A DNA stretch of 52,626 bases from Deltaproteobacteria bacterium (lineage in GTDB: Bacteria; Desulfobacterota; GWC2-55-46; UBA9637), in the NCBI GenBank assembly GCA_016195725.1, contig JACPZB010000018.1:1-52626 (forward strand). Reading direction: 5' to 3'. A program made the position numbers and the translations under genes. Shown here in pieces: positions 7,400-39,313 of this stretch. The notes under the pieces are model-generated. The model searched no databases. It saw only the letters and a list, made by a program, of their open reading frames with translations, and was not told the origin of the DNA. Numbering within the stretch: the stretch's first letter is position 1; each line of letters opens with the position of its first letter.

Positions 7400-7990
7400 T
7401 TACAGTTTTCCTTTCGTTGACATTACACCCTTTATTCTCGGGTCTATTGTTACGGCTTCTTTCAATGCCCTTCCGAATGCCTTAAAAATAGCCTCTATGA
7501 TGTGGTGCATATTCCTTCCATAGGGCACGCCAATATGCAGGGTAATCCCGCTTCTGTTAACAACGGCTTGAAGAAAATCTTCCATAAGGTCTGGATCAAA
7601 ATTTTTAATTTTTACTTTTTTAGGCAATATGACCTTATAAACCAGATATGGCCTATCGCTGATATCAAGCGTTGTTGATGCAATGGCCTCATCCATTGGC
7701 ACGACCGCGCTGCCATATCTTTTAATGCCGACCTTATTGCCAAGTGCCTTTTTCAATGCATCGCCGAGGCATATGCCAATATCCTCAACTGTGTGGTGAT
7801 AATCTATTTCAATATCGCCCTTTGCCTTTATCTTCAAATCAAACAGCCCATGCTTTGTAAAAAGGGACAACATGTGATCAAGAAAGGGAATAGATGTGTC
7901 TATGGTATACATCCCTTTGCCATCCAGATTCAGGTTAAGTGTTATATCCGTTTCCTTGGTCTTTCTAACAATCTGTGCTTTTCTTGGCAT
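7400..7990 (-). CDS. hisB: Imidazoleglycerol-phosphate dehydratase
   Basis: [31 protein letters not shown] and STKGKL. Confidence 0.97.
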
Positions 7991-8215
7991 GCGGTCCTCC
8001 GTAATAATTGCATTGTGACAGAATGGTATAATCTTCCTTTATAAATTCTAATAGGGCCTACGATTCAAATCTCCAATTTAGCGCACATCCTCAATTAAAA
8101 TAGAATTAACACAGGAGGCTTCATTCTACAAGAAGAAATACCAGCGGTTCAAGTATAATCTTTTATTGATTTCAGAGAGGGATATTTGTGAAAATTAAAA
8201 AATTTTAAAAAGTTC

Positions 8216-8252
8216 TTGACAAAGTTCTTAAAATAGGATAAAAAAGGTCTTA
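8216..8252 (+). promoter_or_regulatory. Promoter of the rrf2-cox operon with putative Rrf2 operator 1
   Basis: TTGACA at 8216-8221; TAGGAT-N7-GTCTTA at 8234-8252 covers the expected -10 position. Confidence 0.6.
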
Positions 8253-8288
8253 AATGTTTTTAATGGCGGACCCAAGGATGGTGTTAAA

Positions 8289-8735
8289 ATGTTTAGATTG
8301 AGCAAGGCAGCGGAATACGCAATAAGAGGGGTGTTGCATCTCTCTTTCAAGGCAGAGGGAGAGACGTGCGGCATAGATGAGATAGCCAAAGCTCAGGGTG
8401 TACCGCCTGCGTATCTTGCAAAACTATTTCAATCTTTGGCGAGAAAAGGATTTGTAAGATCCTTCAGGGGAGTTGAGGGCGGTTTTATCCTCACAAAAAG
8501 GCCGAAGGATATCACCCTCCTTGAGATTATAGAGGCCATGGAAGGCCGCATCTGTTTAAACGATTGCCTCATATACGCAGGCTATTGCCCGAAGGATGAT
8601 GTATGCCCTGTTCACCCTGTATGGAAAGAGGCGCATAAGAGGTTTGTTGACTATCTAAAGGGATGCACCTTTGAAGAGATGGCTAACGCATCAAAAGTAA
8701 AGGCAATGAGAACCAAAGAAAAGATTTCAGCATAG
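8289..8735 (+). CDS. Rrf2-family Fe-S transcriptional regulator
   Basis: YAIR..L, YLAKLFQSL, SFRGVEGGF, ITLLEIIEAMEG; Cys cluster C-x6-C-x5-C. Confidence 0.93.
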   Translation: MFRLSKAAEYAIRGVLHLSFKAEGETCGIDEIAKAQGVPPAYLAKLFQSLARKGFVRSFRGVEGGFILTKRPKDITLLEIIEAMEGRICLNDCLIYAGYCPKDDVCPVHPVWKEAHKRFVDYLKGCTFEEMANASKVKAMRTKEKISA

Positions 8736-8761
8736 AAAGGAGGTGTTTTTTTAAAAACCAT

Positions 8762-8780
8762 AAAGACTATTTTGGTCTTA
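8762..8780. promoter_or_regulatory. Putative Rrf2 operator 2 upstream of the oxidase genes
   Basis: AAAGAC-tattttg-GTCTTA, with the same 7-bp spacer and right half-site as 8234-8252. Confidence 0.6.
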
Positions 8781-8829
8781 TTATTCTGTTAATCTGTATG
8801 GAATCATAAAACTCAAGGAGGTAACATCA

Positions 8830-9600
8830 ATGAGCGAAAAAATAGTGGAACATGAACTCACCTGGCATACAAGCTATTGGCCGCTTATAGGGAGTGTAGG
8901 GGTATTATTCCTTGCGCCGCTGGCATTCGCCTTCTATTTTGTCTACAAGATGCCGATGATGTCAATAATCTCGCTTGGTATAGGTGCCCCTTTGACCATA
9001 ATATCCATAGCAGGATGGGTTAAGGAGGGAATAGAGGATGAGCATGGATACAGCGAAGGCCACAGTGTCTGGGCCATGCCAATATTTATCGTGGCTGAGG
9101 CGACACTCTTTGTGGGATTTTTTGCTGCCTACTGGGCGCTGAGACTTACTGCCCCTGTCTGGCCGCCTGCCGGCACGCCTCATGAGATGCCATTTGCTAT
9201 ACCTTTAATAATGACAGCAATTCTTTTGTCATCAAGCGTTACCATCCACATGGCGGAAAAGCATCTTGAGGAAGAGACCGGCAATAAGGGTGGTTTTTTA
9301 AAATGGCTCATTATAACCATCATACTTGGAGCGGCGTTTCTGAGCCTATCAGCCTATGAATGGTCTGAGCTCATGCACGAAGGATTTAACATCAAAACAA
9401 ATATTTACTCCTCTGTATTTTTCCCTTTAACCGGCTTTCACGGCTCCCATGTGCTGGTGGGTATAGCCATGTTTGTCTGCATCCTCATACCTGCCCTTGC
9501 GGGAAAGATCAGCGAACCTTTTGTAAAATCCGCATCCATTTACTGGCATTTTGTAGATATTGTTTGGTTATTTGTAGTTTCGCAGGTCTACTTCTGGTGA
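8830..9600 (+). CDS. ctaE: Heme-copper oxidase subunit III
   Basis: FIVAEATLF, WPP, LTGFHGSHV and YWHFVDIVW. Confidence 0.93.
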   Translation: MSEKIVEHELTWHTSYWPLIGSVGVLFLAPLAFAFYFVYKMPMMSIISLGIGAPLTIISIAGWVKEGIEDEHGYSEGHSVWAMPIFIVAEATLFVGFFAAYWALRLTAPVWPPAGTPHEMPFAIPLIMTAILLSSSVTIHMAEKHLEEETGNKGGFLKWLIITIILGAAFLSLSAYEWSELMHEGFNIKTNIYSSVFFPLTGFHGSHVLVGIAMFVCILIPALAGKISEPFVKSASIYWHFVDIVWLFVVSQVYFW

Positions 9601-9643
9601 TCGGGTTATTTTATTGAAAAAAATATGCCGTAAGGAGGAACAT

Positions 9644-9976
9644 ATGCGTAACATTATATGGCTAATAACTTTGTCAATAAATTTTGTGTTTGCCGGGACC
9701 GTTCTGGCGGCAGATGGAGCGACAATCTATAAGACAAAGTGCGCTCTATGTCATGGTGACAAGGGTGAAGGCAAGAAGGGGATGGCGCCGGCGCATAGAG
9801 GCAACGAGTTTATAAGCAAAGGAAAGACGGAGGATGTTAAGAAGGTTATCCTTGAAGGCCGAGAGGGCGCTGCAAAAAAATATAAAGAATTCCCGATTCC
9901 TATGCCCAAGTCCGGCCTATCAGACACCGATGCCGATGCGGTGGCAAAGTTTATGCAGGGCGACTTGCAGAAATAG
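9644..9976 (+). CDS. Periplasmic monoheme class I cytochrome c
   Basis: Signal peptide, CALCH and distal PMP; RBS aaggagg before ATG 9644. Confidence 0.92.
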   Translation: MRNIIWLITLSINFVFAGTVLAADGATIYKTKCALCHGDKGEGKKGMAPAHRGNEFISKGKTEDVKKVILEGREGAAKKYKEFPIPMPKSGLSDTDADAVAKFMQGDLQK

Positions 9977-10019: not shown

Positions 10020-10757
10020 ATGGGCAGAAAAAACTTTTTAAAAAGGCTTTTTTATTTACTATTTGCCACGGTTATCCTGTCTGCATCTATGGTGTATGCC
10101 AATGGAATAAAAATTGAAATGACGGGAACTCCCGCTGAAGGATGGGAACATCTCTGGAGAGAGTTGATGATAGATATAACCGTCATCGGCGTGGTATTTG
10201 CAGCTGTAACCATCTATCTCCTTATTACAAATAGGAGAAAGAGACCGGGCGACGAAGGGCAGGGGCCGAAGCTCAGTCCCCTGGCGGCATTTGGATGGGT
10301 TGTTATTCCGATATTTGTATTCATGGCAGACGACATCTATCTTGCAGCAGAGAGTTTTGAGCTCTGGGGTAATTACAGAAACGTCCCTGCAAATGCCCTG
10401 GTGATAAATGTTGAAGGGTATATGTGGGGTTGGGATGTCAAGTATCCTGAAAAGATAATCATAACCAATGAACTCCGGGTTCCGGCAGGAAGGCCGATTC
10501 ATATAAAACTTACCAGCCGTGATGTGGTGCACAGCTTCTTCATACCTGATTTCCATGTGAAATGGGATGCGGTCAAAGGTAGAGAAAACTATCTCTGGTT
10601 TTATCCCAAGCAAGTTGAGGCTGGAGAGCATGTTATGACCTGCACAGAATTCTGCGGAATGCTTCATTCAAGCATGTTTGGTAAGGTCATTGTCATGCCT
10701 GAGAATGAATTTAACAAGTGGATTGAAGATAACAAGCCAAAAGGAGGGAATGTATGA
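10020..10757 (+). CDS. ctaC: Heme-copper oxidase subunit II (CuA)
   Basis: DVVHSF and CTEFCGMLHSSM CuA ligands; RBS aggagg before ATG 10020. Confidence 0.94.
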   Translation: MGRKNFLKRLFYLLFATVILSASMVYANGIKIEMTGTPAEGWEHLWRELMIDITVIGVVFAAVTIYLLITNRRKRPGDEGQGPKLSPLAAFGWVVIPIFVFMADDIYLAAESFELWGNYRNVPANALVINVEGYMWGWDVKYPEKIIITNELRVPAGRPIHIKLTSRDVVHSFFIPDFHVKWDAVKGRENYLWFYPKQVEAGEHVMTCTEFCGMLHSSMFGKVIVMPENEFNKWIEDNKPKGGNV

Positions 10758-12364
10758 GTGTAGCATCTCAAGCCTTAACGGCACAGTCTAAATTCAGCCT
10801 TAAAGAATGGATATTTACTACAGATCATAAGAGAGTAGCCATACTCTATCTTATAGGTTCCTTTGCTGCCTTCTTTGTGGCAGGAATAATGGCCATGCTC
10901 ATGAGGACAGAGCTGGCAACTGTAGGGCCTACCATAACATCAAATCCAACAAATTATAATGTGTGGCTCTATTTCCACGGCGCGGCAATGATACTCGGTT
11001 ATCAGATACCCTCGCTTACAGGATTTTTTGCCAACTACTATGTCCCGCTCATGATCGGCGCGAAGGATGTGGCATTCCCCAGGCTTAATGCATTGAGCGT
11101 ATGGCTTTACTGGATGGGGATTGTGCTGGCCCTTCTCACATTTGTAATACCTGATCCGCCAGACATTATGTGGACAGGCTATCCACCTTATTCAATTATT
11201 ACACCTGGCAATACAGCATTCTACACCTTTACAGTTCTTCTCATAGGATTTTCTTCCATTGCCGGCGGGGTTAATTTCCTGACCACCATAATCCGCATGC
11301 GGGCCCCGGGCATAACATGGAATAAGCTCAACATCTTTATCTGGTGCACCATGGCCGCATTCGTCATGCAGGTTATATTTGTCCCGATCTTGGGCACGGC
11401 GGTTACACTGCTTTCTTTTGACAAGTACCTCGGCACCCATTTCTTTGATGCCAATGCAGGCGGGACCCCCCTTATATATGAAAATCTATTCTGGTTCTAC
11501 TCTCACCCCGCAGTCTATGTAATCCTGCTTCCAGGGGTTGGCCTAATCTATGAGATAGTGGCGACATTTGCCAGAAATAGGGTCTTTAACTATAAAGGGG
11601 TTGTATACGGCGGCATCTGGGGTACTGTCCTTTTAAGCGGCGTTGTCTGGGGTCATCACATCTATGTCTCAGCTATCCCAAGTTGGCTTGCCCTGATCAT
11701 AACCTTTACAACGCTTTTAATAAGCATTCCAGTGGGTTTGTTGGTGATAGGCATAGTAGGTACTCTCTATAAAGGTTCTATTGAATTCAAAACCCCCATG
11801 CTCTATGCAGTAGGGTTCATGTTCCTCTTCCTTATAGGAGGACTCACAGGCATACCCAATGCCATGTCCGCTATATATATTCACATCCACGGCACCCAGT
11901 GGATTACAGGACACTTCCATTATGTCATGGCTGTTTCAGTAACTACTGCCATCATAGGAGGCACATATTATGTCTGGCCAAAGATGACAGGAAAGATGTA
12001 TAATGAGACCCTTGGAAAGCTCGGATTCTGGCTTTTCTTTATAGGTGTGAATATCACTTTCTCTCTTACCATGTGGTTGGGCTATAAGGGATGGCCAAGA
12101 CGTTACTATGATTATTCACAGTTTCCTCAGTTTCAGGGTACACAGCAGATAATAACAGCGGGTTCGTATATAATATTCCTTGGCGCATTGGTTACCCTGA
12201 TAACATGGATACATTCGCTCATCTGGGGAGAGAAGGCCCCGCAGAATCCCTGGGGCTCAAAATCCCTTGAATGGACCCATGCTCCGACGCCTCCTCCTCC
12301 TGGAAACTATCCGGAACCGCTGAAACTCTCTGAAGATTGGCACCCTTATGGTTATGGGAAATAA
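10754..12364 (+). CDS. ctaD: Heme-copper oxidase subunit I, A2-type, with K-channel residues substituted
   Basis: TTDHK, KDVAFPRLN, WTGYPP, WFYSHPAVY, WGHH, GHFHY and PRRY. Confidence 0.94.
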   Translation: MSVASQALTAQSKFSLKEWIFTTDHKRVAILYLIGSFAAFFVAGIMAMLMRTELATVGPTITSNPTNYNVWLYFHGAAMILGYQIPSLTGFFANYYVPLMIGAKDVAFPRLNALSVWLYWMGIVLALLTFVIPDPPDIMWTGYPPYSIITPGNTAFYTFTVLLIGFSSIAGGVNFLTTIIRMRAPGITWNKLNIFIWCTMAAFVMQVIFVPILGTAVTLLSFDKYLGTHFFDANAGGTPLIYENLFWFYSHPAVYVILLPGVGLIYEIVATFARNRVFNYKGVVYGGIWGTVLLSGVVWGHHIYVSAIPSWLALIITFTTLLISIPVGLLVIGIVGTLYKGSIEFKTPMLYAVGFMFLFLIGGLTGIPNAMSAIYIHIHGTQWITGHFHYVMAVSVTTAIIGGTYYVWPKMTGKMYNETLGKLGFWLFFIGVNITFSLTMWLGYKGWPRRYYDYSQFPQFQGTQQIITAGSYIIFLGALVTLITWIHSLIWGEKAPQNPWGSKSLEWTHAPTPPPPGNYPEPLKLSEDWHPYGYGK

Positions 12365-12427: not shown

Positions 12428-13294
12428 ATGCTGAGCACCATAAAAAATTACCTCCCTCTCTTTAAATTCAGAATATGCTCTTTCATTACATTCAGCGCAG
12501 TTGTCGGTCTTATATCTACCTCCCCTATTAATATCTCAGCATCACATATCCTTGCATTAATAGTCGTTACCATGATGGCATCTGCAGGCGCCAGTATGTT
12601 CAACCATTACTTTGATATGGATATAGATGGAGTAATGCAGAGGACAAAGAAAAGGCCTATGCCGTCCGACAGGATTGGCGATTCAAAGGTCATCTTATTG
12701 ACAGCCGTTGGGATTTTTATTATATCCATCCTTCTTTCATATAAGATACTTAACTACATGGCCGGGCTGCATCTGTTCCTCGGCGGATTTGTATATGCCG
12801 TAGTTTATACAATATGGCTTAAGAGGAGGAGTTGGCTCAATATCGTAATAGGCGGCCTTGCAGGGAGTTTTGCTGTACTTGCAGGAGGCGCATCTGCAAC
12901 CCCCGAACTCTGTCTTCCACCAGTACTTCTCGCCATAACCATGTTTTTCTGGACGCCGTCCCACTTCTGGAGCTTTGCCATACTCTACAAGGAAGAATAC
13001 GAAAAGGCGGGCATCCCTATGCTTCCCAATGTAATAGGGGATTCGAAGACAGCAAGATATATTCTCATCAATACAATTCTTTTGGTTGTATCATCTTTTT
13101 TACCTTTACTTTTTGGTTATTTTGGCTTTTTTTATATTGCAGCAGCCGTTAGTTTTGGAACATTTTTTATCATAAGAAATATACAACTTCTATCCAATAT
13201 ATCAAAAGAGATCGCATGGAAGAATTTTAAGGCATCTATGATATATCTTGGAGGCCTTTTTCTGGCCGTTATAATAGATGTTATCACCAGGTAG
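12428..13294 (+). CDS. cyoE: Protoheme IX farnesyltransferase (heme O synthase)
   Basis: NHYFDMDIDGVMQRTKKRP, YTIWLKR, NIVIGG and FWTPSHFW. Confidence 0.95.
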   Translation: MLSTIKNYLPLFKFRICSFITFSAVVGLISTSPINISASHILALIVVTMMASAGASMFNHYFDMDIDGVMQRTKKRPMPSDRIGDSKVILLTAVGIFIISILLSYKILNYMAGLHLFLGGFVYAVVYTIWLKRRSWLNIVIGGLAGSFAVLAGGASATPELCLPPVLLAITMFFWTPSHFWSFAILYKEEYEKAGIPMLPNVIGDSKTARYILINTILLVVSSFLPLLFGYFGFFYIAAAVSFGTFFIIRNIQLLSNISKEIAWKNFKASMIYLGGLFLAVIIDVITR

Positions 13295-13300
13295 AAAGTT

Positions 13301-14122
13301 ATGAGGATCCTTAAGGCAATTTCTCTTTTTATAATGCTTGCAACTTTCTTAAACACAGTCCCCTCGTTTTCGCTTACTGCAAAAGATGAAGAGACTGCCA
13401 TCAAATTATCAAACAAAGTCATTGGAAATTATCTGGGTGAGTATACCCTTATTGACCAGGATGGCAAGAATTTCAGGTTAAAAGAGTTTTTGGGTAAACC
13501 TCTGCTTATAAGCTTCATATACACAAGTTGCGGACATATCTGCCCCACCATAACAATGAATCTCAAGAAAGCTATCAAAGAGGCAGGCAGGGATTTTGGC
13601 GTAAAATTTAATGCTATAATTATCGGCTTTGATGTGGAGAACGATACGCCGCAGAGGATGAAGGAATACGGAAGCAACTTCACGGATGATTTTAAAAACT
13701 GGAGATTTGCCGCAGCGAATAAGGAGACAATAGATAAGCTGGCAAAAGATATTGGTTTTTATTACAGAAAGGTTGAGGGGGGATTTGACCACCTGAATTT
13801 TGTAACAGTGGTTGACAAAGATGGAAAGATATATAAACAGGTTTATGGCATGGATTTCAAACCTCAGGATATATTGCAGCCCGTATATCAATCTCTATCA
13901 CCACAAAAAAGTGGCTTCATTGCACAACCTTCAGGCATAATAGGAAAGCTCCTGCTCTTCTGCTACAAATACGACGAGGCAACAGGCACATACAAGCTGG
14001 ATTATGGGATGTTGATACCAATGATAATAGGTCCAATCTTTTCTATAGGTGTTATGATATCACTAATCATCTACCTCTTCCGGGGCAGTGAAATAAAAGG
14101 CAAGGCTATCAAGCCGCACTAA
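13301..14122 (+). CDS. SCO/SenC copper chaperone
   Basis: DQDG, YTSCGHICP (CxxxC), FDH and a C-terminal TM. Confidence 0.93.
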   Translation: MRILKAISLFIMLATFLNTVPSFSLTAKDEETAIKLSNKVIGNYLGEYTLIDQDGKNFRLKEFLGKPLLISFIYTSCGHICPTITMNLKKAIKEAGRDFGVKFNAIIIGFDVENDTPQRMKEYGSNFTDDFKNWRFAAANKETIDKLAKDIGFYYRKVEGGFDHLNFVTVVDKDGKIYKQVYGMDFKPQDILQPVYQSLSPQKSGFIAQPSGIIGKLLLFCYKYDEATGTYKLDYGMLIPMIIGPIFSIGVMISLIIYLFRGSEIKGKAIKPH

Positions 14123-32975: not shown

Positions 32976-34277
32976 TCACATGCCAAATTTATGCGCCCTT
33001 TCTGTTGAAAATATGCCTGACGGTCTTTTTGCCGGAAATTCTGTTATTTTTTCAAATGTGGTTGGATTATAGACAACCACCTTGTCTTCATCCATTAGAG
33101 ATATATAAACCGCATCGCCCTTTGGCGTGAACTGAGGGTGGGTTGCCCCTTTGCCAGGTGTGAATGTTTTTACAACCTCAAGATTCTTAAGGTCTATCAC
33201 CTGTATTGTATCTCCATTTTTGCCAACCAGGTCTACCCAGACATACCGCCCGTCAGGGCTGGAAACGGCATAAAGGGCAGTGCCGATAAGAGACACCTCT
33301 TTTACAAGACCCCAATCCTTTGTATTGTAAACCAGCGCCACTTCCCTCTTTATAGCCGGAAGAACCGCCAAATCCCTTGCAATCGACCATCCCTTTAAAT
33401 GCGGTATCTTCCATAAAGGAACCGTCTCTCCCTGCGCTTCGCCGTTTTCCCTTATCTTTATGGTTGTAATCTTTTTGACCTCTGACATCTCCCATGTATC
33501 CAGAAGCCCGACCCAGTTGGAATTTAAAAAACCGTTCAGATAATATCTTCCGCCCGGTGTTATTAGGGCATCATACGGGGTTTCGCCTATATCCCAGAAT
33601 TTCTTTATTACGGGAAAATCCTTTTTACCGGCATCTGCAACCCAGATCCCGTTACTGTCCATAAGCGAGAATATAAGGAGATTTCCCGGCGCATCTACAA
33701 GGCCTACAACCCTTGCTGTTACCTTCCTTCCGTCAGGATATTCCCTCTCAGCTGGTATTATTTTTACTGTCTCCAATGTTTCCGCATCAAGGATTCTAAC
33801 CTCTCCGGGCACATAGTTGCTGAGCGCAATATATTTGCCATCCTGCGTCATGACGCCGCCTACAGAGTCGTCCCCTGCCTTAACCCTCTTTACAAGCTTC
33901 AATTGGAGCAGGTCTATCTTGCTTACAGAGGCATCCCTTCCAATTACATAGGCAAATCTTGCATCCTTTGAAAATTTGACCGTGCCGTGGATGAGATTGC
34001 CGAGGCCTGAAATCCTGCCAAGGAACTTGTGCCTTGAGGAGTCAATGACAATTACACTCCCTGCCTCCCTCTCAACAATCACCATTAAGGAGGCGGTGCC
34101 GTAGGTATCCGTCTCTTTAGCAAATGCCAGGATGTTGAAGAATATTAAAAACCACAGGAACGCAAACAGTATGGATAATTTCGGATTTCGGATTTTGGAT
34201 TTCAGATTTAAAATATTACCCTTCAAATCACGAATCTCAAACCTGTTATCAGCAAATCTCCGCATATCCTTTTTCAT
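32976..34277 (-). CDS. nirF: Heme d1 biosynthesis protein NirF
   Basis: d1-type beta-propeller without CxxCH; VERE.GS, YVIGRD, PYDALI, PHLKGW and PSGIF. Confidence 0.88.
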   Translation of the reverse strand: MKKDMRRFADNRFEIRDLKGNILNLKSKIRNPKLSILFAFLWFLIFFNILAFAKETDTYGTASLMVIVEREAGSVIVIDSSRHKFLGRISGLGNLIHGTVKFSKDARFAYVIGRDASVSKIDLLQLKLVKRVKAGDDSVGGVMTQDGKYIALSNYVPGEVRILDAETLETVKIIPAEREYPDGRKVTARVVGLVDAPGNLLIFSLMDSNGIWVADAGKKDFPVIKKFWDIGETPYDALITPGGRYYLNGFLNSNWVGLLDTWEMSEVKKITTIKIRENGEAQGETVPLWKIPHLKGWSIARDLAVLPAIKREVALVYNTKDWGLVKEVSLIGTALYAVSSPDGRYVWVDLVGKNGDTIQVIDLKNLEVVKTFTPGKGATHPQFTPKGDAVYISLMDEDKVVVYNPTTFEKITEFPAKRPSGIFSTERAHKFGM

Positions 34278-35482
34278 CTATTGCCTATCGCTTGCCTCTC
34301 TATTATTATCTCTTCATCAGTCAGATAGCATGCAGGGTCTTCTGCCCAGACATTTCCATACACTGCCTCTGCCCTGACCCGGTAGTTGCCCCCACATATC
34401 TCAAGGTATGCGCACCGGCTACACCTGCCCATAACAGATTCCTTTTTATTTTTGAGCCTCCGCATAATCGGGTCTCTTGTATCCAGCCATATTTCGCTGA
34501 ACGGCCTCTCTTTTACATTCCCGAATGAATAGTGGCTCCAAAACTGGTCTGCATGAACATTGCCGATATTGTCAATGCAGCCTATTGCAGTGCCGGAGCT
34601 GTTTCCACTGCGCATTTTTAAAAGCTTATAAATCCTTTCAGCCTTATCAGGATCTTCTTGCTTTACCTTCAGATAAAGGTACACGCCATCCGCATCATTA
34701 TTACCAGTAAGAATATCTTTCTCAATCCCCTTCTCGTAAAACTCTATAGCCTTCTTAAATATAAAGCCAACCGCCTCTCTTGTCTCTTTATGGGTCAAAT
34801 CATCCTTTGTTATCCTCCTTCCTCTCCCAGAATAGACAAGATGAGAAATATATATCCTCGGGATGTCCTCTTTTTCTGCAAGGTCGAATATGGCCGGAAG
34901 CTGGGGCAACGTCCTCTTGCTTAAGGTAAGACGAAGCCCTGTTCTTACGCCCGCATCCCTGCAATTTCTTATGCCTCCCAGCGCCTTGCTGTAGACGCCG
35001 ATCATGCCTCTGAATCTGTTATTAAATTCGCCTATGCCGTCTATGCTCACGCCGACATAAGCAAAACCCGCATCTTTAATCGCCTTCGCAATATCTTTAT
35101 CTATTAATACGCCATTTGTGGACAAGGCGCATCTGATGCCCTTTGCGCCTGCGTACTTGGCAAACTCAAATATATCATCCCTTAAAAGTGGGTCTCCGCC
35201 TGAAAATATGATGACAGGCACATGGAATGCTGCCAGATCATCTATAACGGTTTTTACCTCAGGGACTGTCAACTCACCCTCATATTCCTTATCAAGCGAA
35301 TCAGCATAGCAATGGATGCATTTTAAGTTGCATTTTTTTGTGATGTTCCATACAACGACCGGCCTTTTAACCTCTGAAAATTGCAGGAGCCTTGCAGACT
35401 CCCCATGTCTGTGTATTTTATGGACGCAGGCGCCTTCTTCCATCTTTTTTGTTTCGCATAAAAGTTTTGTAACACCCAGCAT
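34274..35482 (-). CDS. nirJ: Heme d1 biosynthesis radical SAM/SPASM protein NirJ
   Basis: PVVVWNITKKCNLKCIHCY, SHLVYSGRG, TGNNDADG and EDPACYL. Confidence 0.87.
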   Translation of the reverse strand: MLGVTKLLCETKKMEEGACVHKIHRHGESARLLQFSEVKRPVVVWNITKKCNLKCIHCYADSLDKEYEGELTVPEVKTVIDDLAAFHVPVIIFSGGDPLLRDDIFEFAKYAGAKGIRCALSTNGVLIDKDIAKAIKDAGFAYVGVSIDGIGEFNNRFRGMIGVYSKALGGIRNCRDAGVRTGLRLTLSKRTLPQLPAIFDLAEKEDIPRIYISHLVYSGRGRRITKDDLTHKETREAVGFIFKKAIEFYEKGIEKDILTGNNDADGVYLYLKVKQEDPDKAERIYKLLKMRSGNSSGTAIGCIDNIGNVHADQFWSHYSFGNVKERPFSEIWLDTRDPIMRRLKNKKESVMGRCSRCAYLEICGGNYRVRAEAVYGNVWAEDPACYLTDEEIIIERQAIGNR

Positions 35483-35502
35483 AATTCTCCTCTAAAAGAA
35501 AT

Positions 35503-35601
35503 ACCAAAAGGCAAATATCAAAAATTAAGGTATTGCATTTTTACATTTTGATTTTTAATCTTTGATTTTGCCTATCTCCCATTGCCTATCGCCTATTGCC
35601 T
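35503..35601. repeat. Two adjacent heptamer arrays at the nirN/nirJ junction
   Basis: caaaa..tcaaaaa / tttttac-attttga-tttttaa, and gcctatc-tcccatt-gcctatc-gcctatt. Confidence 0.75.
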
Positions 35602-37009
35602 GTATTTTAGGATATGTTTTATTCAAGGCGTTATATTTGCCGGCAGGCTTTTTAAAAGGCAGCCTCATTTTCTCCTCTAATTTTAAAGCATCGTATACAA
35701 CAACAGCGCCTTCGTCTTCATAGACACTGACCAGGGCATATCTTCCATCTTTTGTAAATTCAATGTGCATGGCTTTCTTTCCCTTAGAAGGGAAGAGGGT
35801 TTTTACAACCTGCAGCGAAGTCTTATCTATAATCTGAATTGCATCGGTGTTTGTATCAACCCATATAAACGGCGTATTCTGATGCGTCCTTACAAAAAAA
35901 CCGGCCCCGCTAAGATTAATCTCTTTAATTATCTTTCTATTGTTCAAATCCAGGATAGTTACAACAGGCCTTTTCAAATGGTTTATAGCGGCATAAAGCG
36001 CGCCCTTATCAACCCAGTATGTAGCGGAAGCAAGATGCGGCATGCCGTCTGTATCAAAGGCGCTTAAAATCTTTTTCTCCTTTAAATTATAAATATAAAT
36101 CATGGTCCCTTTCCTTGAAGAGCCGATAATTATGTCCTCAAAGGGGCTTATAGATATATCTTCAAATGGCTCAGGCAGAGAGAGCCTTTCTATTTCAAAG
36201 CCCTTTGCGTAATTTATGAGCCATAGGTTTGGCATATCTCTAAAAGAGCACAAAAATCTTTGGTCAGAGAATAGGGTATATATGCCGCCAATCTTCCCTG
36301 ATGTCTCCAAAACATAGCTTGCTTCTAATTTATCATTTAAAAATACAATATTGCTTGGCAGGTAGTTGGCTGCAGCAATCCATTTGTCATCGGCAGAAAC
36401 GGCTATGTTTCTTGTATTTATGCCCGTTTTTACACTGTCGACTTTTTTGAATGTATAAAGGTCGTATTTGGTAATCGTCCCGTCTCTTGCCGGAACATAG
36501 ACATAGCGAAACCCGTAAGAAAATTTAGGGCCGCCGTGAATCGCCCCCGCCTGAAACTTATCAAGCGTCTTGAAATTTTGGCCGTCCATAACAGTTACGC
36601 TTCTGGAGCTTTCAACAACCAATGTTATATTTTCGTAATCAATATTCGGTATCGGTTTTTTAGGCTCGGGGGCTGCAAAAACCTCCCTGCTTTTTGCAAT
36701 ATCGTCCATCCCCCATCGGACATTATTCAGAGGTAAAGTTATGTGCGAGATTATTTTGTCAACGTCCCCTTCTGTTAAGATATCTTTAAAAGGAGGCATC
36801 TGGGTTGCAGGCAGGCCGTCTTTTATAATCTTTGAAAGGTCTTCGTTTTTATATGTCTTCAGGGTTTCAGGTATTAAGGCAGGGGCCTTAAGTCCATATC
36901 TTTCGGCATGATGACAGGAAGCGCAGTGTTTCATATAAAGCGTCTTCCCATCATCAGCCGATACGGAACCGGCTATAAAGATTAGCAATGAAACAAGTAC
37001 CTTCTTCAT
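35555..37009 (-). CDS. nirN: Cytochrome c / d1-domain protein NirN
   Basis: CASCH, HGGPKFS, MPHL, FFVRTH and KPAGKYN; start ATG 37009. Confidence 0.9.
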   Translation of the reverse strand: MKKVLVSLLIFIAGSVSADDGKTLYMKHCASCHHAERYGLKAPALIPETLKTYKNEDLSKIIKDGLPATQMPPFKDILTEGDVDKIISHITLPLNNVRWGMDDIAKSREVFAAPEPKKPIPNIDYENITLVVESSRSVTVMDGQNFKTLDKFQAGAIHGGPKFSYGFRYVYVPARDGTITKYDLYTFKKVDSVKTGINTRNIAVSADDKWIAAANYLPSNIVFLNDKLEASYVLETSGKIGGIYTLFSDQRFLCSFRDMPNLWLINYAKGFEIERLSLPEPFEDISISPFEDIIIGSSRKGTMIYIYNLKEKKILSAFDTDGMPHLASATYWVDKGALYAAINHLKRPVVTILDLNNRKIIKEINLSGAGFFVRTHQNTPFIWVDTNTDAIQIIDKTSLQVVKTLFPSKGKKAMHIEFTKDGRYALVSVYEDEGAVVVYDALKLEEKMRLPFKKPAGKYNALNKTYPKIQAIGDRQWEIGKIKD

Positions 37010-37086
37010 GGGGCCTCTTTTTGCTTGCGTCAAGAAAATCCCTGAGGGGAGGTTATGCCCTCAGGAACGAGATTAGGAATGTTTGA

Positions 37087-37587
37087 CTACAGCCTGTTGC
37101 CGCAAAGGTAACCTAATTTTTTGCACACATCTTTAAAGCCCTTATGGCAGTTGGCGCATGTCTCAGGATTCAATGGATGCTTTGCCTCTTTTGATGCAAT
37201 TGATTTGCCGTCTTTAATGGAAACCACATCATAAACAGGCTCGCCGTTTTTGTGGTCTGTTGTAAATGCCGCACCTATCTTCTTGAAAACCAGAACAGCA
37301 GTTTTGCCATCCGGATATTTGCTCCCCTTCTTCTTATAGATATCCACCGCCTTTGGATTGACATAACCCACATACCCGCCTGGTTTCACTCCGCAATAGG
37401 TATCCACCGTGGCCTGAAGTATATCATCTCCGCCTGCGCCAAGGACATTCACGCCGCAATCAGGGAATATATCCAGAGAGATGGTCTTTGTCCACTTGTC
37501 CCAGTAGTTTCCTGCTGCAAAACTATTACTTGTCGTAACTGCTAAAATCATTGCTCCTGCTAATACTGCTAATAATAGCTTTTTCAT
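37087..37587 (-). CDS. Cytochrome P460/c'-beta-fold periplasmic cytochrome
   Basis: Signal peptide, YVN, YPDG and C-terminal CANCH. Confidence 0.7.
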   Translation of the reverse strand: MKKLLLAVLAGAMILAVTTSNSFAAGNYWDKWTKTISLDIFPDCGVNVLGAGGDDILQATVDTYCGVKPGGYVGYVNPKAVDIYKKKGSKYPDGKTAVLVFKKIGAAFTTDHKNGEPVYDVVSIKDGKSIASKEAKHPLNPETCANCHKGFKDVCKKLGYLCGNRL

Positions 37588-37609
37588 GTTTTCTCCTTTA
37601 TTGTATTGT

Positions 37610-37661
37610 AAGGTTGAGGTTGAGGTTGAGGTTAAGGTTTTCTTAACCTCAAGCTCAGCCT
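37610..37661. repeat. Inverted hexamer tandem array (AGGTTG / CAACCT)
   Basis: aggttg x3, aggtta, facing taacct-caagct-cagcct. Confidence 0.85.
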
Positions 37662-37672
37662 GTTTTTCTCTG

Positions 37673-39313
37673 TTAATAAGTATCAGTCATTGTATTGTAT
37701 ACATTAAAGTGACCAGTCGGGGTTACAAGCCAGTCTGCCTTGATCCTTGTCTTTTCCTTTAGTGTCTTGTCATCATAGATTACAAGCTCGCCTACCTTGT
37801 CCCATACAGCTATCCATACTTCATCGCCTGCCTTGTTATATTCAAAATGAACCACCCTGCCGTGGTCAGCCACCTGCCAACACTGGGGTTTCTCATTGGG
37901 GCTGTCCTTACCAAAGGCGCAGACACTGGTGCGAATCTTTTCATCCGGATTCAATGTATGGTCAACCCACACATGTTTTGCCTTTGGATGGGTCTTCACA
38001 AACAGACTGCCGCCGCCGAGGGTTTCTATCTTTCTCACAACCTTCCATGCGTTTTTAGGATGCCCCTTTGGGTCGCTGCCCCATACGGCGACTAATCCTT
38101 CTCCCAGATGGGGTGTTGCACTAACTGGCCCAAATTCAGGGTCCGTCCAATTTGCGCCTCTGCCAGGATGGGGTTTGTTGCCTACCTCAAACTGGGCAAC
38201 CTGTTTTTTCGTCTCGCTGTCAACAACCACCATCTTGTTTCTCATGTTGGCCGCCATCATGATATATCTCTTGCTGGCATCCCAGCCGCCGTCGTGCATG
38301 AATCGCTCTGTTTCTATCTGCGTTATCTTCAGGTTCTTTATATCAGTATAATCAATTGCCCATATATACCCTGACTCTTTAACATTTATTATCCATTCAG
38401 GGTCATGATGAGCGGAAATAATAGCCGCCACCCTCGGCTCCGGATGATATTCACCGGTATCATAAGTATATGACCTCGTGCTTACAACCTTCTTGGGCTC
38501 CAGCGTTTGCCCGTCAAGGATTACGAAATGCGGCGGCCAATAGCACCCTATGATAGCGAGCTTATCTTCAAAATTCCCCTTCTTCCCTTTATATTTGCTG
38601 CTATCTATGCTTCTTGCCTCAGTGCAGGTCTTTACCTCTGCCACCTTATCAGGCTTAGCCATCCATAAATCAATCATGGTTGCCTTGCCATCCCTGCCTA
38701 TAGAGTAAAAATACCTGCCTGAAGCAGATGACCGCAAGATATGGACTGCAAAGCCAGTATCTACAATAGATATAACTTCTTTGCTATCTCCGTCAAGTAT
38801 GGCCACCTTGCCAGCATCCCTCAAAACAACGCCAAAGAAGTTCTGCCAGTTTTTGTTGTGTTCCGGTTTCTTGGGCCTTTGAGCCTCAGGGACTATAAGC
38901 TTCCAGCTCTCCTTCATCTCTGCCAGCGAAAACTCAGGCGGGACAGGAGGAGCCTCCTGGAGGAATCTTGCAAGGATATCTATTTCCTCTTCAGATAGAA
39001 TATTATTCCAGCTCGGCATTCCGCCGCCGGTTCCATTGGTAATGAATGCCTTGATTATGTTTGTATCGTAATTCTTCTGTTTTAGATTTACATCTGTAAT
39101 GTTAGGTCCTGTAGCGCCCTTTCTAAGTGTTCCGTGGCAGCCGGCGCATCTATTGAAAAACAGGCCTTTTGCCTTCGCAAGCTCCTCAGGCGTCAAGTCA
39201 GGACTGGCATTGACCTTACAAGGAAACCCTATAGCCATAAGAATAGTTAGGGCTACTGGTAAAGCCATTCTTTCCATTGCAGAAACTGCATTTCTTTTAA
39301 ATTGGACTAACAT
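37673..39313 (-). CDS. nirS: Cytochrome cd1 nitrite reductase
   Basis: RCAGCHGTLRKGATG, LRDAG, GFAVH, YHPEPRVAAI, HDGGWD, PHPGRGAN and TPTGHFN. Confidence 0.97.
   Translation of the reverse strand: MLVQFKRNAVSAMERMALPVALTILMAIGFPCKVNASPDLTPEELAKAKGLFFNRCAGCHGTLRKGATGPNITDVNLKQKNYDTNIIKAFITNGTGGGMPSWNNILSEEEIDILARFLQEAPPVPPEFSLAEMKESWKLIVPEAQRPKKPEHNKNWQNFFGVVLRDAGKVAILDGDSKEVISIVDTGFAVHILRSSASGRYFYSIGRDGKATMIDLWMAKPDKVAEVKTCTEARSIDSSKYKGKKGNFEDKLAIIGCYWPPHFVILDGQTLEPKKVVSTRSYTYDTGEYHPEPRVAAIISAHHDPEWIINVKESGYIWAIDYTDIKNLKITQIETERFMHDGGWDASKRYIMMAANMRNKMVVVDSETKKQVAQFEVGNKPHPGRGANWTDPEFGPVSATPHLGEGLVAVWGSDPKGHPKNAWKVVRKIETLGGGSLFVKTHPKAKHVWVDHTLNPDEKIRTSVCAFGKDSPNEKPQCWQVADHGRVVHFEYNKAGDEVWIAVWDKVGELVIYDDKTLKEKTRIKADWLVTPTGHFNVYNTMTDTY

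Follow-up and report, generated by a model that had tools for sequence, protein, structure and literature searches.

Contig JACPZB010000018.1 of the genome assembly GCA_016195725.1 (Deltaproteobacteria bacterium), a stretch of 52,626 nucleotides called the window below, carries the genes of an A2-type heme-copper oxidase (HCO) in which the K-channel for protons has been lost from both subunit I and subunit II. The residues of the catalytic center and of the D-channel are kept, and the same combination is conserved in a monophyletic clade of oxidases that also share an acidic insertion in subunit II. We lean toward reading these enzymes as working O2 reductases that would draw their protons through the D-channel.

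Residues lost and kept in subunits I and II

The closest solved relative of subunit I was sought with phmmer against all PDB chains, and Thermus residue numbers are taken from that alignment. The best match is the caa3 oxidase of Thermus thermophilus (2yev_A, E 9.7e-116); the top 41 matches are all A-family chains, and the B-family ba3 oxidase appears only at E ~1e-13 to 1e-15. Conservation in subunit I was scored in 145 clade rows, made up of the window protein, 118 database proteins with a minimum length of 500 residues, and 26 loci (sets that likely overlap), and in 53 outgroup rows; the 145 aligned sequences are 55–100% identical to the window protein. The subunit II comparison comprises 25 clade loci, 120 database homologs and 41 outgroup rows. 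The genes and the sites on which the argument turns are the following.

10020–10757, + strand: subunit II gene (COX2; PF00116), with an intact CuA site
10173–10175, + strand: Asp52 of subunit II, transmembrane helix 1, a clade-specific acidic residue (Asp in 143/145 clade rows; Val, Ile or Leu in the outgroup)
10281–10298, + strand: LAAFGW of subunit II, K-channel entry Glu replaced by Ala90, aligned with the L-E-x-x-W-T motif
10326–10334, + strand: Ala103-Asp104-Asp105 of subunit II, within a four-residue insertion in transmembrane helix 2, conserved in the clade and absent from the outgroup
10754–12364, + strand: subunit I gene (COX1), A2-type, 536 amino acids (PF00115, 436 bits)
11033–11089, + strand: D-channel entrance of subunit I, N94, D105 and N112 (each invariant in 145/145 clade and 53/53 outgroup rows)
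11498–11518, + strand: YSHPAVY of subunit I, with the A2 Tyr-Ser motif, the CuB ligand His251 and the cross-link Tyr255 (invariant in 145/145 clade rows)
11588–11590, + strand: Asn279 of subunit I, helix VI–VII loop, cytoplasmic side (Asn in 145/145 clade rows versus Gly in 53/53 outgroup rows)
11639–11641, + strand: Gly296 of subunit I, helix VII, five residues before the CuB His pair (Gly in 143/145 clade rows versus Phe in 53/53 outgroup rows)
11720–11755, + strand: helix VIII of subunit I, ISIPVGLLVIGI, the former K-channel face (Ser324, Val327, Leu330, Ile332, Gly333, Ile334), aligned to caa3 T325/K328
11888–11893, + strand: His379-Gly380 of subunit I, the site of an outgroup His-Asp pair, placed by aligning clade and outgroup rows

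The phmmer alignment sets S324-I-P-V327-G-L-L330 of the window protein opposite A322-V-P-T325-G-V-K328 of caa3, with Thr325 corresponding to Val327 (GTG, 11732–11734) and Lys328 to Leu330 (TTG, 11741–11743). The Asn/Ser position of the K-channel is Gly333 and the Trp position Ile334. Lys is found at position 330 in none of the 145 clade rows (Leu 75, Met 40, Thr 15, others 15) versus 52 of the 53 outgroup rows, and position 327 is Val in 143 clade rows versus Ser or Thr in 52 outgroup rows. In helix VI, Tyr266 (GLIYE) occupies a position that is Ser in 46 of the 53 outgroup rows; the clade has Tyr in 78 rows, Phe in 59 and Met in 6, and the position is aromatic or hydrophobic there, with no conserved hydroxyl. 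Subunit II is changed to match: Glu stands at the channel entry in 39 of the 41 outgroup rows and in none of the 145 clade rows (Ala 109, Ser 15, Val 14), and neither Glu nor Asp lies within the three residues before the Trp in any of the 119 motif-matched homologs (of 120).

The catalytic center, by contrast with the K-channel, is intact. All six His ligands (H75, H251, H301, H302, H387 and H389), two for the low-spin heme, one for the high-spin heme and three for CuB, are present and invariant in the 145 clade rows. Tyr255 stands four residues past His251 (H251-P-A-V-Y255) and is likewise invariant; its covalent link to the histidine is predicted from the sequence. The pair Tyr249-Ser250 replaces the Glu of helix VI in every clade row. 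This Tyr-Ser motif (YSHP) defines the A2 subfamily, a usage that agrees with the preprint of Degli Esposti (2020). The D-channel residues N94, D105, N112, S168, N174, Y249 and S250 are each invariant in the 145 clade rows, as is the pair Arg449/Arg450. In subunit II of the window the CuA ligands H171, C208, E210, C212, H216 and M219 are intact; the CuA motif is present in 118 of the 120 homologs, and the protein scores 152.5 against TIGR02866, whose cut-off is 147.7.

Besides these losses, both subunits carry changes that set the clade apart from its outgroup. Helix 2 of subunit II continues, 13 residues past LAAFGW, into FMADD (10320–10334). Asp104 is found in 144 and Asp105 in all 145 clade rows, the four-residue insertion that contains them is absent from all 41 outgroup rows, and an Ala- or Ser-Asp-Asp sequence occurs in all 120 database homologs (119 by regular expression and one by eye). 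Helix 1 adds Glu48 (123/145 clade rows) to Asp52. Counting residues off the basic cytoplasmic loop would place these carboxylates toward the periplasmic end of the helical hairpin. In subunit I, Thr73 has become Tyr and His244 Asn in all 145 clade rows, and in helix VIII Phe332 has become Ile, Asn333 Gly or Ser and Trp334 Leu; of these changes, only the Asn at 244 is shared with the outgroup, where two of the 53 rows have it. Ser324 is present in 144 clade rows and Lys281 in 134, and nowhere in the subunit I of the clade has a new basic partner become fixed. Positions 379 and 380 are His and Asp in 47 and 52 of the 53 outgroup rows, a pair that we take to be Mg/Mn ligands; in the clade, position 379 is Ser (66), His (36) or Gln (15) and position 380 Asp (89), Glu (29) or Gly (20), and this presumed Mg site thus appears degenerate.

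An earlier note on this DNA, made from its letters, had drawn much the same picture. The open reading frames and coordinates that it gave for the cox genes hold, as do the six His, the cross-link Tyr, the A2 signature and the D-channel residues, which prove invariant across the clade. Its replacements of Thr by Val at 11732, of Lys by Leu at 11741 and of Ser by Gly reappear in the alignment to Thermus caa3 for which it had called, which puts neither Lys nor Thr at the K-channel positions, and the entry Glu is indeed Ala. The Asp-Asp pair that it found unusual turns out to be part of the clade-wide insertion. Its replacement of the helix VI Ser by Tyr is correct for the window, but the Tyr is not conserved, Phe and Met taking its place elsewhere in the clade.

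Extent and ancestry of the clade

The 120 best subunit I homologs (65–87% identical) all carry YSHP-x-VY, and 116 of them have IS(I/V)PVG followed by hydrophobic residues, the other four having escaped only the regular expression. Scanning a single genome for each GTDB species gave 80 loci that fall into two groups: 27 at 55% identity or more, all without the K-channel Thr and Lys, and 53 at 48.5% or less that keep them, with the one exception of locus L034. In a 71-row maximum-likelihood tree the 26 clade rows are monophyletic (SH-aLRT, the Shimodaira-Hasegawa-like approximate likelihood ratio test, 100) on a stem of length 0.47, and the clade is joined, again at SH-aLRT 100, with two K-bearing A2 groups, one from the Aquificota and one from the Nitrospirota/Myxococcota. 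These sister oxidases (L032–L038, P0121) are 44–49% identical to the window protein and share the gene order COX3, SCO-like, COX2, COX1; unlike the clade they keep Thr/Lys and the subunit II Glu, L034 excepted, and they lack the Ala-Asp-Asp insertion. Because Lys is present on every other side of the clade in the tree, the parsimonious reading of this unrooted topology is that the K-channel was lost secondarily. The suggestion of the earlier note that coordinated loss in two subunits marks a distinct class is thereby borne out: both subunits are changed clade-wide, and the substitutions define a monophyletic group in which none of the 145 rows has the Lys.

Metagenome-assembled genomes (MAGs) that carry the clade are labeled RIFCSP "Deltaproteobacteria" (87% identical), Thermodesulfobacteriota, Thiomargarita, Sulfuritalea, Rhodocyclaceae, Candidatus Nitricoxidireducens bremensis, Sterolibacterium, Burkholderiaceae, Sideroxydans, Nitrospinota and Thalassospiraceae/Rhodospirillales, and this scatter over several phyla indicates that the clade has spread horizontally. 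Closer to the source genome, a homolog at least 66% identical is found in 22 of 40 relatives (same class, several families, genomes of ~2 Mb). The gene has therefore long been kept in the lineage, which speaks for purifying selection over a long period. Substitutions conserved across the whole clade exclude chance, and lineage-specific decay was rejected on the same ground, together with the retention of the gene in the 22 relatives and the finding that no close homolog keeps the Lys.

Among the 150 best representatives at 50% identity there are several unrelated lines without the Lys. In an 83-row tree, whose rows were chosen non-randomly and deliberately include K-less sequences, the presence or absence of the K-channel needs at least eight changes of state, at least six of them forced by the starred branches. 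A single origin of all K-less A-family enzymes was rejected on this count and by the approximately unbiased (AU) test, in which uniting L034 with the clade gives a p-AU of 0.0013 (28 rows, LG+G4; the L034 grouping was named after inspection of the tree). L034 comes from an Aquificales MAG (COX1 at 7941–9566) and has lost Thr/Lys and the subunit II Glu independently, inside the K-bearing sister group. Helix 2 of its subunit II has Asp 8 and 12 residues past the conserved Trp and no insertion, while the window pair stands at 11 and 12.

A further K-less A-family lineage, of GHPEVY type and with the helix VI Glu kept, accounts for 18 of 80 metagenome loci (L096, L121, L136–L138, L141–L144, L147–L148, L154–L155, L157–L160 and L162, all on metagenome contigs). 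Its helix VIII reads ISIPVGFLVLV (ISIPTGMLFLVI in L096), convergent with ISIPVGLLV of the window. The five subunits II inspected (L096, L121, L136, L141 and L154) have lost the entry Glu and have an N-terminal extension but no Ala-Asp-Asp insertion, and on this evidence a general link between loss of the Lys and Asp in helix 2 of subunit II was rejected. Representative P0171 is K-less and of Tyr-Ser type, and the relatives found for it, at 47% identity or less, are all K-bearing.

Loss of the K-channel is thus recurrent in the A family, in agreement with the literature. The accessible part of a 2021 paper from the Degli Esposti group discusses repeated K-channel loss in archaeal family A enzymes (PMC8239418). 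Murali et al. (2024; PMC11214002), in the text available, still summarize the A family as having two conserved channels. In the portion of Degli Esposti (2020; 10.1101/2020.03.01.968255) at hand, rare A2 enzymes lack a functional K-channel and conserve the D-channel; in the A2 COX1 of acidophilic Fe(II) oxidizers and of relatives such as Thioclava the K-channel Lys is replaced by hydrophobic residues and the COX2 entry Glu is lost. These enzymes resemble ours in the replaced Lys and entry Glu and in the conserved D-channel. They differ in their taxa (Acidithiobacillus, Acidithrix, Chloroflexi and Thioclava), in being described as heme A-containing and in the placing of the K-less state as early-branching, whereas here it is nested among K-bearing A2 lines. 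The available preprint text makes no mention of Sideroxydans, Gallionella, Sulfuritalea, Nitrospin- or Aquific-.

Ferrigenium straubiae is described, in the accessible text, as having a K-less A2 oxidase that has also lost the subunit II Glu (10.64898/2026.01.22.701106). Its family, Gallionellaceae, also includes a Sideroxydans MAG with the clade of the window (L026), which makes it plausible that the F. straubiae enzyme may belong there too. The operon of that species is written coxBA11C, while clade loci have the order COX3, SCO-like, COX2, COX1, and the Sideroxydans ES-1 paper does not list an aa3-type oxidase. Neither this clade nor its Ala-Asp-Asp insertion was found in print in a search of the K-channel and K-pathway literature that was not aimed at the insertion itself, and the supplements of the 2020 preprint may hold members. 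The earlier note could not tell whether the clade had been described. Related K-less A2 oxidases are already published, and the interest here lies in the well-delimited clade and its subunit II acidic insertion.

Operon and genomic setting

Seven genes on the + strand between 8289 and 14122 make up the cox region, in the order Rrf2 regulator, coxC, cytochrome c gene, coxB, coxA, cyoE and sco1. Those that flank coxB and coxA are listed here.

8289–8735, + strand: Rrf2-family regulator (PF02082, E 6e-34) with a C-x6-C-x5-C-x2-H cluster motif, directly 5' of the cox genes
8830–9600, + strand: subunit III, COX3 (PF00510, E 4e-32)
9614–9976, + strand: small mono-heme cytochrome c with an N-terminal hydrophobic segment (PF00034 and PF13442)
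12428–13294, + strand: heme O synthase, CyoE/UbiA family (PF01040, E 7e-50)
13301–14122, + strand: SCO1/SenC copper chaperone (PF02630, E 9e-22)

An AGGAGG Shine-Dalgarno sequence lies eight bases 5' of the COX2 start at 10020, the COX1 start overlaps the COX2 stop by four bases, and the reading frames are intact. An open reading frame on the opposite strand (10059–10667) is taken as spurious because it lies wholly within COX2. Wherever the sequence of a clade or sister locus extends that far, COX3 stands 5' of COX2-COX1; locus L031 has no COX3 match. The cytochrome c of 9614–9976 is the probable electron donor; tblastn found no counterpart of it between COX3 and COX2 in 33 loci (L007–L038 and L059), in most of which an SCO-like gene occupies its position, and the closest relative, L007, has neither. 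The motif of the Rrf2 protein resembles, we presume, that of IscR; among NCBIfam models only the superfamily model passes, IscR and NsrR both falling under their cut-offs (52.8 versus 182 bits for NsrR). An Rrf2 gene recurs 5' of COX3 in clade loci L007 and L015 and in sister locus L032, and the protein may therefore sense redox state or O2 and regulate the operon accordingly. The operon is present in four groundwater metagenome DNA runs from one study; no RNA run is listed.

Compared with Thermus caa3, the window enzyme shares the YSHP-x-VY motif, the heme and CuB ligands, CuA and a cytochrome c donor. The Thermus enzyme differs in keeping T325 and K328 and in its fused subunits I and III, which are encoded by separate genes in the window. 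Its cytochrome c is fused to subunit II, and it uses heme A. The window operon has a heme O synthase gene, and CtaA (PF02628) was not found in the source genome (2.07 Mb, 90.5% complete) or in its congener G001. CtaA is present in four betaproteobacterial carriers of the clade; in three of these (G002–G004, the genomes of L012, L021 and L022) it adjoins a Tyr-less HCO of ~218 bits and not the K-less cox. Many eNOR operons contain CtaA, according to the text available of Murali et al. (2024).

Six PF00115 matches occur in the source genome, and His-x3-Tyr is present in this cox gene alone. An internal stop interrupts the sixth match, a fragment of 158 residues. Four further HCO-like genes (L002–L005) lie on contigs C3 (20739–21992 and 29563–30861) and C15 (28091–29401 and 30323–31648), with a second heme O synthase gene and an SCO1 gene near them. 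None of the four has His-x3-Tyr: the site reads GHSSQQ in two of them and GHILMN in another, and the fourth has diverged strongly. Three Tyr-less genes on C3 and C15 are of B-family type and each stands beside a CuA-type subunit II gene; the Tyr-less paralogs are candidates for NO reductases (NORs) of eNOR or sNOR type. No cbb3-type gene was found in the source genome. A gene on contig C25 (L087, 6155–6838) has a 633-codon frame that matches only the first 227 positions of the bd subunit I profile, and we regard its product as bd-like, not as a canonical bd oxidase. Five clade-bearing genomes were checked for other HCOs, and four have cbb3-sized HCOs and one a NorB-sized HCO.

Elsewhere in the window, as the earlier note had seen, there is a NirS, part of a cluster at 32976–39313.

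32976–34277, − strand: d1-domain-only protein
34274–35482, − strand: radical-SAM/SPASM protein
35555–37033, − strand: second cytochrome c plus d1 protein
37673–39313, − strand: NirS, cytochrome c plus d1 domain (418 bits)

We take the further d1-domain genes as NirN- and NirF-like and the radical-SAM gene as NirJ-like. The PF00115 search of the genome found only this cox gene on the window contig; a window-wide scan for nor genes was not made. The argument of the earlier note from a missing nor gene fails in any case, given the three Tyr-less genes of B-family type elsewhere in the genome.

Proton supply, substrate and significance

The reading that we favor, with modest confidence, is that the enzyme of the window works as a cytochrome c:O2 oxidoreductase and belongs to an A2 subclade whose two subunits have both lost the canonical K-channel; its protons would be supplied by the D-channel. 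HCOs cannot reduce O2 without the Tyr cofactor, which is missing from every NOR family, according to the accessible text of Murali et al. (2024); by this rule the kept Tyr, three CuB His and CuA point to an O2 reductase. Subunit I also parts from the NOR families (cNOR, qNOR, eNOR, sNOR, gNOR, nNOR and bNOR), which have FeB-type ligation through an added Glu or an altered His, in having no clade-specific Glu near the site. As the sole His-x3-Tyr match to PF00115 in the genome, it is predicted to be the cytochrome c oxidase of this organism. The earlier note had left the choice between a D-channel-only oxidase and another substrate; the first is the simplest reading, and the second is disfavored by the same kept residues.

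Electrons would pass from the cytochrome c of the operon to CuA, the low-spin heme and the high-spin heme/CuB center. All substrate and pumped protons would enter by the D-channel, from Asp105 to Tyr249/Ser250, which would also supply the protons of the reductive phase, the task of the K-channel in textbook enzymes. The hemes are probably B and O rather than A, as there is a heme O synthase in the operon and no CtaA was found. The aa3 enzyme of Acidithiobacillus is an active oxidase. Degli Esposti (2020), in the text available, reaches the same reading, of a K-channel that is gone and a D-channel that stays, for another K-less A2 group that includes Acidithiobacillus. In the B family, one proton input channel suffices for both chemistry and pumping in Thermus ba3, as the accessible part of Murali et al. 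(2024) has it; the single channel of the B and C families is, however, the K-analog, while in the window enzyme it would be the D-channel.

Several points weigh against this reading. K-channel Lys mutants of the Rhodobacter and Paracoccus aa3 oxidases lose almost all O2 turnover, and D-channel-only supply would therefore need compensating changes. The activity of the clade enzyme is itself predicted from sequence. The acidic cluster of subunit II, the Gly substitutions around helices VII and VIII, Asn279 and the degenerate Mg site suggest rebuilding, not simple loss. The genome in which no CtaA was found is 90.5% complete. Finally, the K-less cox of F. straubiae, whose membership of the clade is only plausible, ranks lowest in expression among three HCOs during growth under denitrifying conditions, as far as the accessible text goes (10.64898/2026.01.22.701106).

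The signs of rebuilding lend themselves to a tentative alternative, possible but clearly less well placed, in which the enzyme is an O2 reductase whose K-channel function has been replaced rather than dispensed with. One conceivable route is a water-filled groove that the small clade-specific residues Gly287, Gly296, Gly328, Gly333, Gly336 and Ser324 would open from the cytoplasmic side, with its entry near Asn275, Asn279 and Lys281. Another would be periplasmic access through Glu48, Asp52, Asp104 and Asp105 of subunit II, beside the remodeled Mg-site region. Replacement would account for the fixed substitutions in subunit I (Gly296, Asn279, Gly/Ser333, Ser324 and Lys281), for an insertion and an Asp52 that are near-invariant in 145 clade rows and absent from 41 outgroup rows, and for the degenerate His-Asp pair at 379–380; the independent loss of Lys and Glu in L034, likewise accompanied by Asp in helix 2 of subunit II, fits as well. 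A polar path on the old channel face is, on the other hand, disfavored by Val327 and a uniformly hydrophobic residue 330. No new basic partner is fixed in subunit I, the Asp pair would lie near the periplasmic end of its helix, far from the old Lys, and the K-less GHPEVY-type lineage (L136, L141, L154 and others) manages without the insertion.

A bolder version of the periplasmic route is improbable. Here the protons of reduction would come from the periplasm through the subunit II carboxylate cluster at the interface of subunits I and II, next to the degenerate Mg site, much as in cNOR, leaving only the D-channel electrogenic and lowering the H+/e- ratio. If true, an oxidase so re-plumbed would suit high-potential donors (Fe2+, nitrite, sulfur) or very low O2, the conditions of life of the carrier taxa.

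It is equally hard to credit that the enzyme has changed its substrate and is mainly a reductase of NO, N2O or H2O2, chemistry that would need no K-channel. The idea draws on its carriers, largely uncultured MAGs labeled Sulfuritalea, Rhodocyclaceae, Candidatus Nitricoxidireducens, Sideroxydans, Thiomargarita and Nitrospinota, which denitrify or live as chemolithotrophs where oxygen is low. It draws further on the nirS cluster of the window, on the adjacent regulator of Fe-S type and on the peroxidase-type partial reactions that K-channel mutants keep. A-family oxidases also show weak NO reduction, by the available text of Murali et al. (2024; PMC11214002). Against a change of substrate stand the Tyr cofactor, the three CuB His and CuA, given that all NOR families described in that text lack the Tyr, and the clade-specific residues, which add no Glu around the active site. 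The source genome, moreover, already has its three Tyr-less B-family-type HCO genes beside CuA subunit II genes, and among five carriers a NorB-sized HCO is found in one and a CtaA-adjacent HCO, as in eNOR operons, in three. The Rrf2 regulator, for its part, scores well under the NsrR cut-off.

That the genes are a decaying or non-functional copy, as the near-abolition of activity on loss of the Lys in laboratory enzymes might suggest, is scarcely credible in view of the intact frames and coupled COX2/COX1 overlap, cofactor ligands invariant in 145 rows, a clade that spans several phyla at 55–87% identity and the homologs retained in 22 of 40 relatives.

A practical point concerns annotation. 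Against the NCBIfam equivalog TIGR02891 (CtaD_CoxA) subunit I of the window scores 528.6 bits, under the cut-off of 670.75, and automated annotation consequently misnames the clade, whose members are often called "cbb3-type cytochrome c oxidase subunit I" in NCBI MAG records (P0010, P0026, P0034, P0048, P0066, P0067, P0075, P0078, P0081, P0105 and P0115). Through these wrong names the aerobic capacity and energy yield of many carriers may be misjudged.

The K-channel Lys is among the most studied residues in bioenergetics, and its mutation leaves model oxidases with almost no turnover. As a large and well-delimited group that can be assayed, the clade invites experiments, above all on the acidic insertion of its subunit II. 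As a natural experiment it bears on whether the D-channel can by itself sustain an A-type oxidase, and on the changes that this would require.

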